From Escherichia phage vB_vPM_PD112, in the sequence record NC_054928.1: 64,000 bases of DNA; one strand, written 5' to 3'. The notes beneath the pieces are model-generated. The model was not told the origin of the DNA, searched no databases, and saw only the letters and a list, made by a program, of their open reading frames with translations. Position 1 is the first letter of the stretch, and each line of letters opens with the position of its first letter. The position numbers and the translations under genes are program-made. Shown in pieces: positions 31,265 to 40,407 of the stretch.

Positions 31265-31738
31265 TTATTTGAACGATTTAACGTACTGAATAGAACCTTT
31301 ACTATTCACGAAAGCGATTTTACCATTTTTATTATACATGGTAGCAGTACGCTGATAACCATAAGTTTGTTTACCAGATTGATAACCAACTAATGCGAAA
31401 TTATCTTCACCCATTTTATTCTGTTTAGCGCGAATACGTTCATGTCCATGCGCCATAAGAACCTTAGCATCACCAGTTGCAATGGATCGACGAGTTTTTT
31501 CATCTTCAACTGTATTAACAAAATCATCAAATGAATCAAATTTAGCATGAGATTTATTATACAGTTTTCCATCTACTGCATAATTATATCCCTGTACATC
31601 CATCTCAACTTCTGTGCCATCATCTAATACAGCAGTAATTTTCTGTCCTTTTTTAAATTTCAAAAGATCAGTAAAAGATTCAGCAATAATTTGAGAATTA
31701 ATAGCTGCTTCAGTAATAAATTCTTGATATGTTTTCAT
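31265..31738 (-). CDS. internal (capsid-packaged) protein with capsid targeting sequence
   Basis: N-terminus MKTYQEFITEA matches T4 internal-protein CTS (MKTYQEFIAEA) with xxE cleavage context; lies next to e as ipIII does in T4. Confidence 0.65.
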   Translation of the reverse strand: MKTYQEFITEAAINSQIIAESFTDLLKFKKGQKITAVLDDGTEVEMDVQGYNYAVDGKLYNKSHAKFDSFDDFVNTVEDEKTRRSIATGDAKVLMAHGHERIRAKQNKMGEDNFALVGYQSGKQTYGYQRTATMYNKNGKIAFVNSKGSIQYVKSFK

Positions 31739-35260: not shown

Positions 35261-35791
35261 TTATATCCCATTATTTGAGAGATGTAAACTATTTTTAATT
35301 TTACAAATTCGTTCAGCTTCATCGATAGCAGCATTAATAATGCTTTTAGCTATAGGAGTACTAATACTAGTAGCTTTTACACTTAACACGATTTCTTTAT
35401 CTTTACCAGGCCAACCCCACGATTTTTCACCGTGAGTGCCTTTAATTACAGCAGACACCTCAAGTGAGCATCCATTATCACATGTTTTTACATTAACAAC
35501 CCAAGGGTCACTTTTCTCAATCGGTTTCTCAATCGGTTTATCCCAGTAAATATTAAGAATACGTGGAACATCAAATTTGGCAGGACAAATCTTAACCGTA
35601 AGACCTTCGCTTTCTAGCCAATTAATAAGAGGGCGTTCATACAGGCGACGATGTGGGCTTGGGATTCGACAAGCCTTATGTCCGTTGCTTGCGGCTTCAC
35701 TAAGCTGTTCTAATACCTGCTTTTGCATTATTGATAAAATACCATCAAAAGATTTTTCGGAAGTTTCATTCAGTTCAGTATAAAGAGACAT
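35261..35791 (-). CDS. hypothetical protein
   Basis: ORF track. Confidence 0.5.
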   Translation of the reverse strand: MSLYTELNETSEKSFDGILSIMQKQVLEQLSEAASNGHKACRIPSPHRRLYERPLINWLESEGLTVKICPAKFDVPRILNIYWDKPIEKPIEKSDPWVVNVKTCDNGCSLEVSAVIKGTHGEKSWGWPGKDKEIVLSVKATSISTPIAKSIINAAIDEAERICKIKNSLHLSNNGI

Positions 35792-35846
35792 AACAGTTTC
35801 CTCAAGTTATAGGCTCATAATATCTCAATCATGAGCCTGTGTAAAC

Positions 35847-36110
35847 TTATTTCATATTATTGAAATATTCTTCTGCGATTTCGTCGTTATCGTGGTAAAC
35901 TTTAGAAGACAGTTTAACATAACCTTCTGCTGTGAACATGTTAATCACAACCTTTACAGTATACCACTGACCATCTTCATTACCCATTACTGCGTAAGTT
36001 TCAAACATCGGATGGTCAGGACCGATAACTTTAATATCATTCACTGTACGACCGAAATCTTCTGAAACGCATTTCATAAAGAAGTTGAACAGCTCACCGT
36101 AATTATCCAT
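35847..36110 (-). CDS. hypothetical protein
   Basis: Track start (TTG) lies inside an early promoter; only ATG is residue 22 with GGAGA SD. Confidence 0.5.
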   Translation of the reverse strand: MDNYGELFNFFMKCVSEDFGRTVNDIKVIGPDHPMFETYAVMGNEDGQWYTVKVVINMFTAEGYVKLSSKVYHDNDEIAEEYFNNMK

Positions 36111-36153
36111 TTCATTCTCCAAGTTGTTTTCTGTATCAGTAGTTGATAGTTGT

Positions 36154-36183
36154 ATAGTACCATGGAAGAACAAGGATGTAAAC
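36154..36183 (-). promoter_or_regulatory. T4-type early promoter
   Basis: GTTTACA N17 TGGTACTAT; overlaps track ORF start. Confidence 0.5.
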
Positions 36184-36316
36184 AGTTTTGTGAAAAAATT
36201 TTTAAAAAGTTTTAGGGAATTCTAGGGCGGGGAGGGGCAATTAAAAGATAGGATAATATATTATAAAGGGTATAAACTAAATGATGCCTAGAGAGGTCCA
36301 GAAAGGCCTAGATACC

Positions 36317-36343
36317 AAAAGCCCCAACCTTTCGGCTGGGGCT
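36317..36343 (-). terminator. rho-independent terminator after internal protein gene
   Basis: Near-duplicate of the 36873-36900 hairpin then UUUU. Confidence 0.65.
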
Positions 36344-36350
36344 AAGAATG

Positions 36351-36824
36351 TTATTTGATTTGTTTAGCAGACCAAATGCGGTCTTTGATAATTTTTTGGA
36401 TGTCTTCAACATATTCAAGAGAGTGAACATGTGGGTTATCTTTGAAACTATAAGCACGAGCTAACTTTTGGCCTTCAGTTTTGATTACTAAAAGCTCTTT
36501 AAGGATAGCTTCATATCTGGAGATAATTCCTTTAACGATATTTTTCTCTTGTGTGACTTTAGGATCTGCTTTAGGAGCAGGTTTACCCGAAGCCTTTGCA
36601 AAAGCAGCGCCAGTAGCAACTAAACTTTTCCAGGCCATACTAACTGCATTTCCCGTAAATCCTTCTGCTTTCATGTCGCGAGCAAACTGGAATCGTGATT
36701 CGTCAGAAGCATCTTTATAGGAATATTTACCCGCTGCAATGGCTGCTTTTGCGACAGCTTGAATTTCGGTGCTAGATGCTTCATTTAACACCGCTTCATT
36801 TAAAAATTGAGCATATGATTTCAT
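36351..36824 (-). CDS. internal (capsid-packaged) protein with capsid targeting sequence
   Basis: N-terminus MKSYAQFLNEA is CTS-like; own late promoter TATAAATA upstream; terminator hairpins on both sides. Confidence 0.6.
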   Translation of the reverse strand: MKSYAQFLNEAVLNEASSTEIQAVAKAAIAAGKYSYKDASDESRFQFARDMKAEGFTGNAVSMAWKSLVATGAAFAKASGKPAPKADPKVTQEKNIVKGIISRYEAILKELLVIKTEGQKLARAYSFKDNPHVHSLEYVEDIQKIIKDRIWSAKQIK

Positions 36825-36861
36825 CTTATTTCCTGTTCTAATTCGTGGATTTAATATATTA

Positions 36862-36869
36862 TATTTATA
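36862..36869 (-). promoter_or_regulatory. late promoter TATAAATA (gp55-dependent)
   Basis: Exact TATAAATA on minus strand about 40 nt upstream of internal protein gene start (36824). Confidence 0.6.
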
Positions 36870-36872
36870 CTA

Positions 36873-36900
36873 AAAAGCCCCAACCTTTCGGTCGGGGCTA
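36873..36900 (-). terminator. rho-independent terminator ending tRNA/stable-RNA transcript
   Basis: Minus-strand GCCCCGACC-GAAA-GGUUGGGGC (9-bp stem, GNRA loop) then UUUUU. Confidence 0.7.
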
Positions 36901-37215
36901 AGCCTTGCGGCAACCTTGTAGGGGTTCCACCTGCTAAGGCAAGTGTTTGTACGAAACGCCGGGATTCGAACCCGGTTATTAAGTAGTTGACGCTACTCAA
37001 TATTTTTAAAAGGCCATATCTCGACCATATCCGAACGTTCCGTCAAAAACGCTACTCGGCTTACGGCAAAGATATTTCCTCGAATCGATAATTTGGTGCG
37101 CCGTTTCTGCTGTGATGTAAGAGGGCATCAACAAATCATAAAGATTTATTAACACAATTCCTTACCCAGGGAACATCAGTCCGACGACTTACCGGTAGCG
37201 ACCCGGTTTCTTGTT
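36901..37215 (-). ncRNA. putative stable small RNA region (T4 species 1/2 RNA-like), includes a tRNA-like T-arm
   Basis: No ORF; lies between tRNA-Arg and a strong terminator; CCGGGTTCGAATCCCGG T-arm-like element plus 7-bp acceptor-like pairing near 36945-37045; boundaries not resolved. Confidence 0.35.
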
Positions 37216-37292
37216 TGGTCGAGGCAGAAGGATTCTAACCTTCAACCAACGGATTAGAAATCCGTTGCTCTATACAATTGAGCTATGCCCCG
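37216..37292 (-). tRNA. tRNA-Arg (anticodon UCU)
   Basis: Hand-folded cloverleaf; 7-bp acceptor stem with one G-U; anticodon loop TTTCTAA; encoded CCA. Confidence 0.7.
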
Positions 37293-37295
37293 TAA

Positions 37296-37961
37296 TTAAA
37301 ATTTCATTTTTCGACCTTTAAACCATCCTTCTGGAATTGGGTCAGTTTTCTTAATACGTTTAGAAACTTTTTCATCTAATGAATGAATCCACATCATGCC
37401 AAATTGGGAATTCTTTTCACCTTGTTGGTGTTTATTTCTGGCGTGAGATTCTTTCATTTTATTAATAGTTTCAGGAGTATGATGCTTATTTAAAAATCTG
37501 CTATTATTTAAAAATTTTTCCCTGTATTCAGGAGTTGACCACAAGCGTTTAAATACATTTGAACCATTTTTACGATATTTTTCTTGAAGTAAAATATCAT
37601 TTTTAAAACGTGACTTAAACGATTTAGCTCCTTTTAAACTAGCGTCTTTCTTCTGATTTAGCATCTCAGGAATATTTATATGATCCCATCCACCTTCACC
37701 GCCAAGTTTTAAATTATACACATCAGGTCTATTTAAAAACTCTTCTGTGACAATATTTTTCTCGGCTTCAAGCATAGATTCTTTATCGTCAAAATATTCT
37801 AATATTTCTTTAGAAAAATTTTCTATACCATACCTGTCTTGGGCTCTTTTTAATAATTTACCAGAACCCATATATCCATCATCTAAATTTTCGGTAGAAT
37901 GCACACCAATATAAATTTTATTATTAATTTTATTTGTTATTTTATAAGCGTAATGGAACAT
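37296..37961 (-). CDS. segB: GIY-YIG homing endonuclease SegB
   Basis: 221 aa; YAYKITNKINNKIYIGVHST GIY-YIG motif; inside tRNA cluster as in T4. Confidence 0.85.
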   Translation of the reverse strand: MFHYAYKITNKINNKIYIGVHSTENLDDGYMGSGKLLKRAQDRYGIENFSKEILEYFDDKESMLEAEKNIVTEEFLNRPDVYNLKLGGEGGWDHINIPEMLNQKKDASLKGAKSFKSRFKNDILLQEKYRKNGSNVFKRLWSTPEYREKFLNNSRFLNKHHTPETINKMKESHARNKHQQGEKNSQFGMMWIHSLDEKVSKRIKKTDPIPEGWFKGRKMKF

Positions 37962-38002
37962 AAATATCTCCTATTTCTAAGAGTATTTATGTTCCCAAAA
38001 TA

Positions 38003-38076
38003 TGACCCAGACCAGATTCGAACTGATAACCTTTCCCTTATGAGGGGACTGCTGCTAACCATTGAGCTACAGGGCC
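38003..38076 (-). tRNA. tRNA-Ile (anticodon CAU; may score as Met)
   Basis: Hand-folded; T-arm ATCAG/TTCGAAT/CTGGT; anticodon loop CTCATAA; one acceptor mismatch. Confidence 0.65.
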
Positions 38077-38082
38077 TTGATA

Positions 38083-38155
38083 TGCTGATTGACGGAATCG
38101 AACCGCCGACCTTCTCATTACAAGTGAGTTGCTCTACCTACTGAGCTAAATCAGC
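38083..38155 (-). tRNA. tRNA-Thr (anticodon UGU)
   Basis: Acceptor GCTGATT/AATCAGC; anticodon loop CTTGTAA; T-loop TTCGATT. Confidence 0.8.
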
Positions 38156-38162
38156 GAAATTA

Positions 38163-38249
38163 CGGAGGCGATAGGATTTGAACCTATGAGTCGCCGGAGC
38201 GACTGCCGGTTTTCAAGACCGGTGCATTAAACCACTCTGCCACGCCTCC
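38163..38249 (-). tRNA. tRNA-Ser (anticodon UGA), long variable arm
   Basis: Acceptor GGAGGCG/CGCCTCC; anticodon loop CTTGAAA; long extra arm; T-loop TTCAAAT. Confidence 0.8.
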
Positions 38250-38251
38250 AG

Positions 38252-38325
38252 TCTCCGTGGCAGGATTTGAACCTACGACATTCTGCTCCCAAAGCAGACG
38301 CTCTACCAAACTGAGCTACACGGAG
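38252..38325 (-). tRNA. tRNA-Pro (anticodon UGG)
   Basis: Acceptor CTCCGTG/CACGGAG; anticodon loop TTTGGGA. Confidence 0.8.
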
Positions 38326-38337
38326 TAAATTAAATTT

Positions 38338-38409
<72 letters not shown>

Positions 38410-38415
38410 AAACTT

Positions 38416-38502
38416 TGGTACGAGAAGTGGGACTCGAACCCACAAGGAAATCATTCCGCAGCATTTTAAGTGCTGTGCCTTTACCAATTTGACCATTCTC
38501 GC
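38416..38502 (-). tRNA. tRNA-Leu (anticodon UAA), long variable arm
   Basis: Acceptor GCGAGAA/TTCTCGT; anticodon loop CTTAAAA; encoded CCA. Confidence 0.8.
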
Positions 38503-38508
38503 TCTATA

Positions 38509-39141
38509 TTATTTATTACGTGAAAAAGATTGTTCTATCAATTCTGGACACTTTCGTTCTATCCATTTTCTAGCTTTTTGTGGGCTTATACCTATTATTT
38601 TAGCAGCTTTACTAACCCATCCAAATTTAGAATAATCGATTTTAACTAATTCTTCGTAAATTTCATCAGTTAAAATCTTTTCATTAATATTTACCAGTAA
38701 ATGATATAATTTATTATCATTAGCAATTTTAATGAATCTTTTATAGTTTCCGCCTTTACTTAAACCTAATGAAGTAATTGCAGATGATATAGTAGCCGAA
38801 TTTAATAGTGCGTTTAAAATTTCTTCATCACTAACATTATAACGCTTTTTATTATTTTTAATATTTTTACCAGCAAAAGTATCAGTTTGCGAATGGCAAT
38901 TTGGACATAATAATCTTAAATTTGATTTAAGATGATTTTTGTTATTTCCATCAATATGGTCTAATTGCAGAACAATATGCTTATTTTGCCATTTTGAAAT
39001 TTTACAAATTGCGCACTCATATGGAAAAATATTTTCTTTTATTATTTTATCTTTCAGCTTTCCTGTACTAAAATTTGGATGTTTTCCTTCAAAAATTTCA
39101 GCTAATTTAGTATCCATAATATGATTCCCAATTATTAACAA
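38509..39141 (-). CDS. HNH homing endonuclease (mob-like)
   Basis: HNH motif LDHIDGNNKNHLKSNLRLLCPNCH; 210 aa; stop 6 nt from tRNA-Leu 5' end. Confidence 0.75.
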   Translation of the reverse strand: MLIIGNHIMDTKLAEIFEGKHPNFSTGKLKDKIIKENIFPYECAICKISKWQNKHIVLQLDHIDGNNKNHLKSNLRLLCPNCHSQTDTFAGKNIKNNKKRYNVSDEEILNALLNSATISSAITSLGLSKGGNYKRFIKIANDNKLYHLLVNINEKILTDEIYEELVKIDYSKFGWVSKAAKIIGISPQKARKWIERKCPELIEQSFSRNK

Positions 39142-39517: not shown

Positions 39518-39901
39518 TCAGCCTTCATCAACAATAGTGTGAGTATGGGCATTTACGATTTGCCACCAGTCAAAACTATCGCCAAATCGTTTTGATTTAT
39601 TGTCTTCAATAATTTGGCGTAATTCATCTTCTGTTTCAGCATACGCAATCAAATCATCATATCCACCACGAGGATAATAATTATCACCTGCAAAAAGTAA
39701 AAAGTTTGGTTTAATGTTATTGAACTCTTCAAGAGTAATAACTTTTCCTGACGGTTGAACAATCTCTACATATTTATATCCCAATTTTTGAGCAGCATCT
39801 ACTGCTTCAAGCAGGGTATCATGAGCCCATCCAATTTGGCAATCTGGCTTTTCAGATGGATTAGCCTGATAATCCGCGTACACTTTATACATTCTATTCA
39901 C
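39518..39901 (-). CDS. hypothetical protein
   Basis: ORF track. Confidence 0.45.
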   Translation of the reverse strand: MNRMYKVYADYQANPSEKPDCQIGWAHDTLLEAVDAAQKLGYKYVEIVQPSGKVITLEEFNNIKPNFLLFAGDNYYPRGGYDDLIAYAETEDELRQIIEDNKSKRFGDSFDWWQIVNAHTHTIVDEG

Positions 39902-40149: not shown

Positions 40150-40407
40150 TTATTTTAAATCTTCTAATCGTTTCTTCATCTTAGAACCGTTCTTAGCGAT
40201 TTCGCCTGCATCAGAGCATAATGCTAAAAGCGCTTTAACTTTAGTTTGGTCTCCTTTAAAAGATGAAGGATCGACTGCAGCAGCAAGTTCTTTAATACGA
40301 GAGAAAAGACGCTCAGCTTCAGCTAAAGCCATTCCAAGCTTTACTTCCATACCATGAGAAGATTCAGTAATAGTAGTTTTTGTAGCAAACTCTTTGAAAG
40401 TTTTCAT
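40150..40407 (-). CDS. internal-protein-like small protein with CTS-like N-terminus (ipI locus)
   Basis: N-terminus MKTFKEFATKTTITE resembles capsid targeting sequence; immediately upstream of 57B. Confidence 0.55.
   Translation of the reverse strand: MKTFKEFATKTTITESSHGMEVKLGMALAEAERLFSRIKELAAAVDPSSFKGDQTKVKALLALCSDAGEIAKNGSKMKKRLEDLK

Follow-up and report, generated by a model that had tools for sequence, protein, structure and literature searches.

A candidate cassette array bordered by a repeated terminator-like hairpin between rnaC and e.8 of T4-like phages

Introduction

Composites of a promoter and a stem-loop, of an early (PeSL) or a middle (PmSL) promoter type, have been described as linkers for modular shuffling of phage genes, and mini-circles have been shown in RB49/phi1 (Arbiol 2010, PMC2839356; Comeau 2014, PMC4122927). 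A model of PeSL recombination in which short homologies suffice is already published (PMC2839356, PMC4122927), and according to the part of PMC2839356 that cites Singer 1982, T4 recombination needs only small (<50 bp) patches of homology. Here we describe a comparable locus in Escherichia phage vB_vPM_PD112 (NC_054928.1; a stretch of 64,000 nucleotides (nt), hereafter the window), in which a small gene, termed gene A, lies between rnaC and e.8 with a copy of one terminator-like hairpin on each side (hp1 upstream, hp2 downstream). Like PeSL and PmSL, the element at this locus is an intergenic composite of terminator stem-loop and promoter that is repeated around small, non-essential genes in a plastic region, sits at the boundaries of indels and replacements between close relatives, has a stem of GGGG...CCCC flavour and is a proposed linker for exchange. 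It differs in its promoter motif, the late consensus TATAAATA, where PeSL is sigma-70-like early and PmSL is MotA middle; late promoters are mentioned in neither paper on these elements (PMC2839356, PMC4122927). PeSL also occurs in many copies scattered over the hyperplastic regions of a genome, whereas here a genome has just two copies, both at a single locus, and the tRNA-operon terminator itself supplies the linker. The early-promoter-like site of e.8 lies 138 nt past hp2, too distant for the two to form one composite.

The T-even loci for internal proteins (IPs) offer a second comparison. They are polymorphic (Repoila 1994, as described in PMC2839356, PMC4122927 and PMC3012670), and the pattern described there, small genes of variable number and identity that have only an N-terminal capsid targeting sequence (CTS) in common between near-identical phages, resembles the present locus. 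By the same accounts, the classical loci are next to ipI (trna.4 to 57B) and next to ipII/ipIII (downstream of e), whereas the present locus, which separates rnaC from e.8, holds no gene in T4 or PST. Classical IP elements have early promoters and weak, AT-rich stem-loops (PMC2839356; seen upstream of T4 ipII and ipIII), in contrast to the GC-rich hairpins of about -20 kcal/mol found here. Gene A is in neither classical IP locus of the window, each of which holds a CTS-type gene (Table 1); with gene A, the phage would have three CTS-type genes at three loci.

Other arrangements allow further comparisons. Like gene A, lambdoid morons (Hendrix 2000, as summarized in PMC2839356) are lone accessory genes with their own promoter and terminator, placed between two genes that are left undisturbed. 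According to that summary, morons are thought to derive from illegitimate recombination and have no conserved flanking linkers, whereas direct repeats flank gene A, which is co-oriented with its neighbours. Integron cassettes are likewise single-gene units split by a repeated imperfect palindrome and variable in number and order, an analogy also drawn by Arbiol 2010 (PMC2839356). The cassettes here differ in having their own promoter and no attC/attI, and their exchange would use general recombination; the locus holds no integrase-like open reading frame (ORF), its neighbours being segB (GIY-YIG), tRNA genes and e.8. Homing by SegB takes place in the same neighbourhood (Brok-Volchanskaya 2008, PMC2330249), and flanking DNA carried along could spread alleles of the locus beside segB, but homing leaves repeat-precise junctions unexplained and the cassette encodes no endonuclease. 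In the literature searched, which excluded Repoila 1994 and Comeau 2007, we found no description of an rnaC-e.8 cassette locus.

Results and Discussion

A repeated terminator-like hairpin flanks gene A

We consider it likely that the interval from rnaC to e.8 is an array of cassettes in which the repeated hairpin is the linker for cassette loss and gain, and that the product of gene A is made late, packaged and injected. A repeat search of the window revealed a direct repeat of 30 nt, 28/30 identical (93%), in two copies spaced 556 nt apart (Table 1). The repeat reaches about 36 nt, through GGTAT/AGTAT, if one 1-nt indel in the T run is permitted. At 3 or fewer mismatches the 22-nt hairpin occurs at only 2 places in 64 kb, with 0 matches in 100 shuffles. 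A terminator scan of the minus strand called both copies: hp1 as AGCCCCGACCGAAAGGTTGGGGCT plus TTTTTAG (36899-36876) and hp2 as AGCCCCAGCCGAAAGGTTGGGGCT plus TTTTGG (36343-36320), each with a 10-pair stem containing 7 G-C pairs and a GAAA loop. RNA folding gave -20.3 kcal/mol for hp1 and -20.6 kcal/mol for hp2 (z scores of -4.0 and -4.9), and 0/200 shuffles were as stable. The two hairpins differ at two bases (GA versus AG), each of which still forms a G-U or A-U pair with the 3'-arm TT. Both have the make-up of an intrinsic terminator, a GC-rich stem-loop directly before a U run (UUUUU and UUUU, respectively), and are predicted terminators.

Two unrelated terminators might come to look alike by convergence on GC-rich stems with GNRA loops; both copies do score as intrinsic terminators, and GAAA is a common stable loop. 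The 28/30 identity, however, takes in the unpaired 5' CTTAG, the loop and the T run, and other terminator-like sites nearby are unrelated in sequence. A third copy is missing from the 64 kb and none is expected by chance, and the single-copy junctions of T4, T2 and T6 described below are what shared ancestry predicts. Independent origin of the hairpins is therefore very improbable. The original prediction, made from the letters of the window, had named divergent repeats with independent terminators as one outcome that would refute it, and the identity and the single-copy junctions contradict that outcome.

hp1 lies about 50 nt past the 3' end of rnaC and is the terminator of the tRNA-Arg/rnaD/rnaC unit, not the cassette's own terminator; it is labelled 'terminator' in the records of e11/2 and KAW1E185. 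It is nearly invariant across Tequatrovirus loci, whereas hp2 varies more between phages. In the intergenic space that follows, the composite of hairpin and TATAAATA leads into a ribosome-binding site and the ATG of gene A, and no -35/-10 pair occurs between hp1 and that ATG. In almost every related locus the motif stands 2-3 nt past the T run; most of these copies are exact, and those of L009, L010 and Pu-Krd-SF4 each have a single mismatch. The composite is present twice in JS98-like loci, ahead of each of two modules (D and E, below). The original prediction was right, coordinates included, about the 157-amino-acid (aa) ORF, about the late-promoter motif on the minus strand, and about the near-identical hairpins on either side, both of which were called terminator-like. 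Its description of a self-contained, bracketed cassette holds for the repeat on both sides, but not for the upstream hairpin, which belongs to the tRNA/rnaD/rnaC unit.

Empty and occupied sites in related phages

The window is part of a Tequatrovirus (T4-like) genome; over this region it shares 99.9% identity with Escherichia phage vB_EcoM_CE1 and about 97% with RB32 and RB33. We read twenty-odd loci from INPHARED records and IMG/VR contigs; an IMG/VR scan with e.8 gave 10 loci, so the survey rests on INPHARED. The distance from the end of rnaC to the start of e.8 is 282 nt in T4, T2 and T6 versus 837 nt in the window. In T4 the rnaC flank is followed by TTAGCCCCGACCGAAAGGTTGGGGC, TTTTT and GGTATCTAAGCC, which equals the left flank of hp1 in the window, one hairpin, and the right flank of hp2. 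The junctions of T2 and T6 are structured in the same way, with one hairpin and its T run followed directly by the e.8 leader sequence GGTATCTAGGCC. The 556 nt absent from these three phages comprise exactly the late-promoter motif, gene A and one hairpin, with the join inside the repeat. PST has no gene annotated between rnaC and e.8. The Mosigvirus phi25-307, in which the junction was read, also has an empty site but carries its own lineage's hairpin variant, GCCCCTTCC. The original prediction had proposed a comparison across T-even genomes as its check, and the outcome bears it out, with repeat-precise empty sites in T4, T2, T6 and phi25-307, and in PST by annotation. Gene A recurs at this site in Tequatrovirus, Mosigvirus, JS98-like and Klebsiella Jiaodavirus phages, and the empty sites of T4, T2 and T6 are thus more likely to be deletions than the ancestral state.

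Judged from these sequences, the rnaC-e.8 interval is a small cassette array, not a single insertion. Module A encodes 153-157 aa with a CTS-like start; module B (165 records) encodes 187 aa and starts MKTYAEFLTEA; module E encodes 205-208 aa that begin with a CTS-like sequence, shares the PHROG of A and B and, compared by eye, looks similar to B over an internal stretch; module D encodes a 184-aa membrane protein with no CTS. The site is empty in T4, T2, T6, PST and phi25-307. It holds A in the window, RB33, e11/2, SG1, L006, L007 and KAW1E185; B in Killian; A and B in OES_C-2, L008, L009, L015 and Kelasse; A and D in GRNsp7, L012 and L014; and D and E in L013, a JS98-like locus. Two further loci have A and B in decayed form. 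In ESh32 (L016, 3696-4127) gene B is without its 5' part, including the targeting sequence, and in Pu-Krd-SF4 (L022, 2068-2349) gene A is broken into two ORFs. The 143-aa ORF of ESh32 was considered as a new module and rejected, being B without its 5' part. Module D (phrog_2143; GRNsp7 L023 2952-3506, L013 2636-3190) occurs in 573 phage records from many genera, including phages that are not T4-like, and some records call it a holin. Across records, the hairpin had matches in 861 (1352 places, most sampled records having 1 or 2) and e.8 in 595; these counts, like those for A (510) and B, are per-query totals and not cross-tabulated locus states.

Module junctions coincide with the 3' edge of a terminator hairpin in each locus read, and the sequence after the T run tells which module follows: (A/G)GTATAAATA for A, AGTTTGAATC for B and GGTATCTAGGCC for e.8. 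In OES_C-2, Kelasse and KAW1E185 the upstream copy runs on as TTTTTGGTAT followed by AAATA, and the e.8-proximal junction reads TTTTTGGTAT followed by CTAGG, extending the identity to about 38 nt. hp1 and hp2 are 100% identical in the A+B genomes OES_C-2, L008, L015 and ESh32. In Killian the rnaC flank is joined to one hairpin and then to the B leader, exactly the product expected from exchange between hp1 and hp2 in an A+B genome. BLAST homology to the window ends just past hp1 (query 534-547) or just past hp2 (query 1084-1094) in many records of a spread sample of the 772 that matched. Collectively, these alignments show terminators as the module borders and the hp1/hp2 repeat as the mark of precise deletions or insertions.

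The product of gene A as a candidate internal protein

Protein A begins MKSYAQFLNE followed by A, where T4 IPII and IPIII have MKTYQEFIAE followed by A, so that Y4, F7, L8/I8 and E10 match. In the T4 capsid targeting sequence, residues 4 and 7 are reported to serve targeting and residues 8 and 10 processing (PMC9026906). Y4, F7, L/I8 and E10 are kept in B and E as well. Within the window the N-terminal CTS-like pattern is found in only 2 ORFs, gene A and one in the PHROG 'internal virion protein'. Most likely, protein A would be made late, enter the prohead via its N-terminal 10 residues, be cut after Glu10 by the prohead protease gp21 and be injected with the DNA.

Alternatively, the cassette may be real and gene A an ordinary late or accessory gene whose start merely resembles a targeting sequence. 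Homology to named IP families is lacking: A, B and E all belong to phrog_2280 ('unknown function'), a Pfam search of protein A gave nothing above noise, and the 14 clusters obtained from a protein database search all lacked a name or were 'hypothetical'. Gene A has a single copy in each of 510 phage records and is annotated 'hypothetical protein' in all records listed. An AlphaFold model built on an 8-sequence alignment (pLDDT 75.7, pTM 0.46) is all-helical with two helical modules; a structure search with it gave no relative in PDB (best E 1.2) and, in BFVD, only uncharacterized homologues of A itself. Virion proteomics of protein A was not found in the literature searched. These results count against a packaged protein, as does the position of gene A away from both IP loci described in the literature read. 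Pairwise BLASTP aligned A and B over their first 11 residues only, which also favours an ordinary accessory gene; because the alignment is confined to this leader, we do not claim paralogy of A and B. Nevertheless, conservation of only the leader, above a divergent body, has been published as the hallmark of IP genes (PMC3012670), A, B and E all keep the four CTS positions with a mapped function, few ORFs of the window show the pattern, and a late-promoter motif suits a head component. We regard an ordinary accessory gene as somewhat unlikely. The CTS-like N-terminus is the part of the original 'internal protein' claim that stands, with sampled records offering nothing beyond 'hypothetical protein'. 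The label draws only on this targeting-like sequence, by which the reading is likely.

A homologue of gene A in Klebsiella Jiaodavirus lies at a syntenic place, past the tRNAs and ahead of the e.x genes. A 94-aa protein (P0014) from a 2.9-kb Logan contig has an N-terminal part like trna.3 (window ORF 39518-39901) joined to the last ~30 residues of A; this chimera reflects either natural loss of the entire tRNA region or faulty assembly.

Probable exchange at the repeats

The proposed cassette consists of TATAAATA, a ribosome-binding site, gene A and an intrinsic-terminator hairpin, placed directly behind the terminator of the tRNA/rnaD/rnaC unit. With its own terminator a copy of the tRNA-unit terminator, it is bracketed by a direct repeat of 30-36 nt, and the repeated hairpin, in some phages together with the T run and GGTAT (~38 nt identical), would be the linker at which the phage's own recombination or replication machinery drives loss and gain. 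Within one genome, the two copies could recombine by crossover or copy-choice, causing deletion and possibly releasing a circle; between co-infecting genomes or concatemers, unequal exchange could bring gain or loss. Neither event would disturb expression of rnaC and e.8, because each cassette brings its own promoter and terminator.

Several loci bear marks of such events. In L007 (550-600 and 1105-1155) hp1 has AGCC and hp2 has GACC, the variants standing in opposite copies relative to the window, a pattern that fits exchange or conversion between the repeats. Comparison of the window with L006 gives 95-100% identity as far as hp1 and 48-82% directly past it, with recovery some 95 nt short of the hp2 end; in its 5' two-thirds, the L006 cassette matches the allele of a JS98-like phage at 95-100% identity. 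This mosaic indicates transfer of cassette alleles between lineages, one breakpoint falling at the linker and one within the gene. In KAW1E185 (L025, 3060-3085, equivalent to window 36320-36343) hp2 reads GCCCCAACC-TTTC-GGTTGGGGC, the GAAA loop being inverted to TTTC to give a perfect palindrome. This loop inversion is a small palindrome flip and shows activity at the DNA level in the linker element. The hairpin count of 3 places in KAW1E185 had suggested a third cassette, which we rejected, as the locus holds only hp1 and the loop-inverted hp2; a palindromic hp2 that matches on both strands probably accounts for the count.

Some of the observations weigh against the hairpin as linker. The repeat is only 30-38 nt long. 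TATAAATA is at chance level in the window (11 found, 11.2 expected); we dropped its enrichment as evidence, and its significance rests on position and on conservation in relatives. The L006 allele replacement has its right breakpoint not at hp2 but in the conserved 3' part of the gene, some 95 nt short of the hp2 end. B ends in another hairpin, CCCTATC-N5-GATAGGG, which has only ~9 nt (GGGCTTTTT) in common with hp2 and bounds the B indel on the right. In the A+D genomes GRNsp7, L012 and L014, gene A is followed by a different terminator, AAAGCCC(C/T)GTC(T/C)(-/A)GGGGCTTT, and the repeated hairpin comes only after D. The original prediction had held that the same gene without flanking repeats would refute it; this partly occurs in these three loci, but not in the other A loci read.

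These points lend themselves to an account in which the repeats have no special part, the duplicated hairpin being the scar of one old insertion or of a tandem terminator duplication, and the present distribution of cassettes having spread through ordinary homologous recombination in the long flanks, possibly aided by gene conversion that SegB initiates from the neighbouring tRNA cluster. Among Tequatrovirus loci the flanks are 90-99% identical over hundreds of bases. Long flanks of 95-99% identity, on the rnaC and e.8 sides, are present in all these phages, a further point against the linker, and an ordinary double crossover in them could move cassettes from one co-infecting phage to another with no part for the repeats; segB lies ~400 nt upstream, and SegB homing carries flanking sequences along (PMC2330249). 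hp2 drifts like an unconstrained copy (GACCA, TAGCCA and GACAG variants), and the breakpoint inside the L006 gene likewise favours this account. Yet Killian with B alone and the empty sites need deletions or insertions that end exactly in hairpin copies, the empty state exists with two lineage-specific hairpin variants (GACC in Tequatrovirus, TTCC in Mosigvirus), and homology breaks in many genomes cluster right past the hairpins. Identity of hp1 and hp2 in several phages, and their swap in L007, speak for continuing exchange between the copies. We consider a passive scar unlikely and favour the cassette array with the hairpin as linker. The exchangeable cassette of the original prediction is thus supported by repeat-precise presence and absence, while crossover at the repeats themselves we infer from the junctions.

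A bolder version of the array, in which rnaC-e.8 is a third, unrecognized IP locus of integron-like character with a late-promoter stem-loop (the tRNA-operon terminator plus TATAAATA) as linker, seems doubtful. In that version cassettes would excise as circles and re-integrate at the linker, and the phrog_2280 proteins A, B and E, labelled 'hypothetical' in more than 500 genomes, would be injected anti-defence proteins that set host range. A transposon or homing element was rejected: the unit is without an enzyme gene and has no target duplication but the hairpin.

Neighbouring genes and features

All genes of the locus are on the minus strand, in the order tRNA cluster with segB, tRNA-Arg, rnaD, rnaC, hp1, gene A, hp2, early-promoter-like site and e.8 (Table 1). 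Gene e.8 is annotated in T4, RB33 and T6. An Rfam scan of 35500-39000 (E<=1) returned only tRNAs and weak chance matches, with no family covering the hairpins, rnaC or rnaD.

Table 1. Positions of the locus features and of the classical IP locus genes in the window
Feature	Position	Strand	Remarks
segB	37296-37961		GIY-YIG; ~400 nt upstream
tRNA-Arg	37216-37292	(-)	
rnaD	~37094-37214		annotation transferred from RB33 and T4
rnaC (species 1 RNA)	36950-37088	(-)	coordinates transferred from RB33 and T4; last gene of the tRNA-Arg/rnaD/rnaC unit
Anchor GGTTCGAATCCCGGCGTTTCGTACA on rnaC side	end at 36948		
hp1, upstream repeat copy CTTAGCCCCGACCGAAAGGTTGGGGCTTTT	36873-36902	(-)	terminator-like hairpin; left linker of cassette
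Late-promoter consensus motif TATAAATA	36862-36869	(-)	2 nt past hp1 T run; 37 nt ahead of gene A ATG
Gene A, 157 aa (MKSYAQFLNEA...)	36351-36824	(-)	first 10 codons, 36795-36824, encode MKSYAQFLNE
hp2, downstream repeat copy CTTAGCCCCAGCCGAAAGGTTGGGGCTTTT	36317-36346	(-)	terminator-like hairpin behind gene A; right linker
556-nt unit (late-promoter motif, gene A, one hairpin copy)	36317-36872	(-)	
Right flank, early-promoter-like TTTACA-17-TACTAT and e.8	35847-36182	(-)	promoter-like site 36182-36154; e.8 36110-35847
Classical IP locus gene	40150-40407	(-)	85 aa; phrog_3499 'internal head protein'; CTS-type
Classical IP locus gene	31265-31738	(-)	157 aa; phrog_3155 / DUF7412 'internal virion protein'; CTS-type

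Just 3' of hp2 (36290-36312, minus strand) is a short palindrome, AGGCC-N6-GGCCT, which is intact in e11/2, SG1 and L006 and degenerate (GACCT) in the window; this stretch is the most variable part of the e.8 leader across relatives. On the tRNA side, many relatives (T2, L020 1152-1502; SG1, L003 1701-2051; L024; L025) have a 351-nt ORF ('similar to RB69ORF150c') that separates tRNA-Arg from rnaD and is absent from the window (~37215) and T4. The window is without tRNA-Gln: RB33 homology ends 7 nt into that gene (39124), and a 210-aa ORF is there instead (38509-39141, minus strand). This position is annotated as an HNH endonuclease in Killian, and the window ORF has no Pfam match at E<=0.001. 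Relatives also differ in their set of tRNA genes (Tyr, Asn, His, Ile/Met) and in whether they have segB. In a 2025 laboratory-evolution study of the T4-like phage BW-1, which carries module B, one convergent single-nucleotide polymorphism arose in rnaD, just upstream of the cassette locus (PMC12685909).

Significance

The concept of repeated promoter/stem-loop linkers is already published; what is gained here is one well-defined example at a locus open to testing, rather than a novel principle. The locus provides a natural series, empty, with one cassette, with the other and with both, whose junctions are precise to the base and which is suited to testing the shuffling of regulatory cassettes. 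It can be studied in classical phages with tractable genetics, T4 against RB32/RB33, instead of RB49/phi1. In T4, the lone hairpin from rnaC to e.8 marks a neutral, transcriptionally insulated site where late, CTS-tagged cargo might be placed. The gene A family, with ~500 sequenced phages, emerges as a family of candidate packaged effectors. Phages inject internal proteins together with their DNA, and at least IPI* of T4 disarms a host restriction system (PMC3012670); the set of IPs that a phage carries is thus part of its host range, and bears on the choice and engineering of therapeutic T4-like phages.

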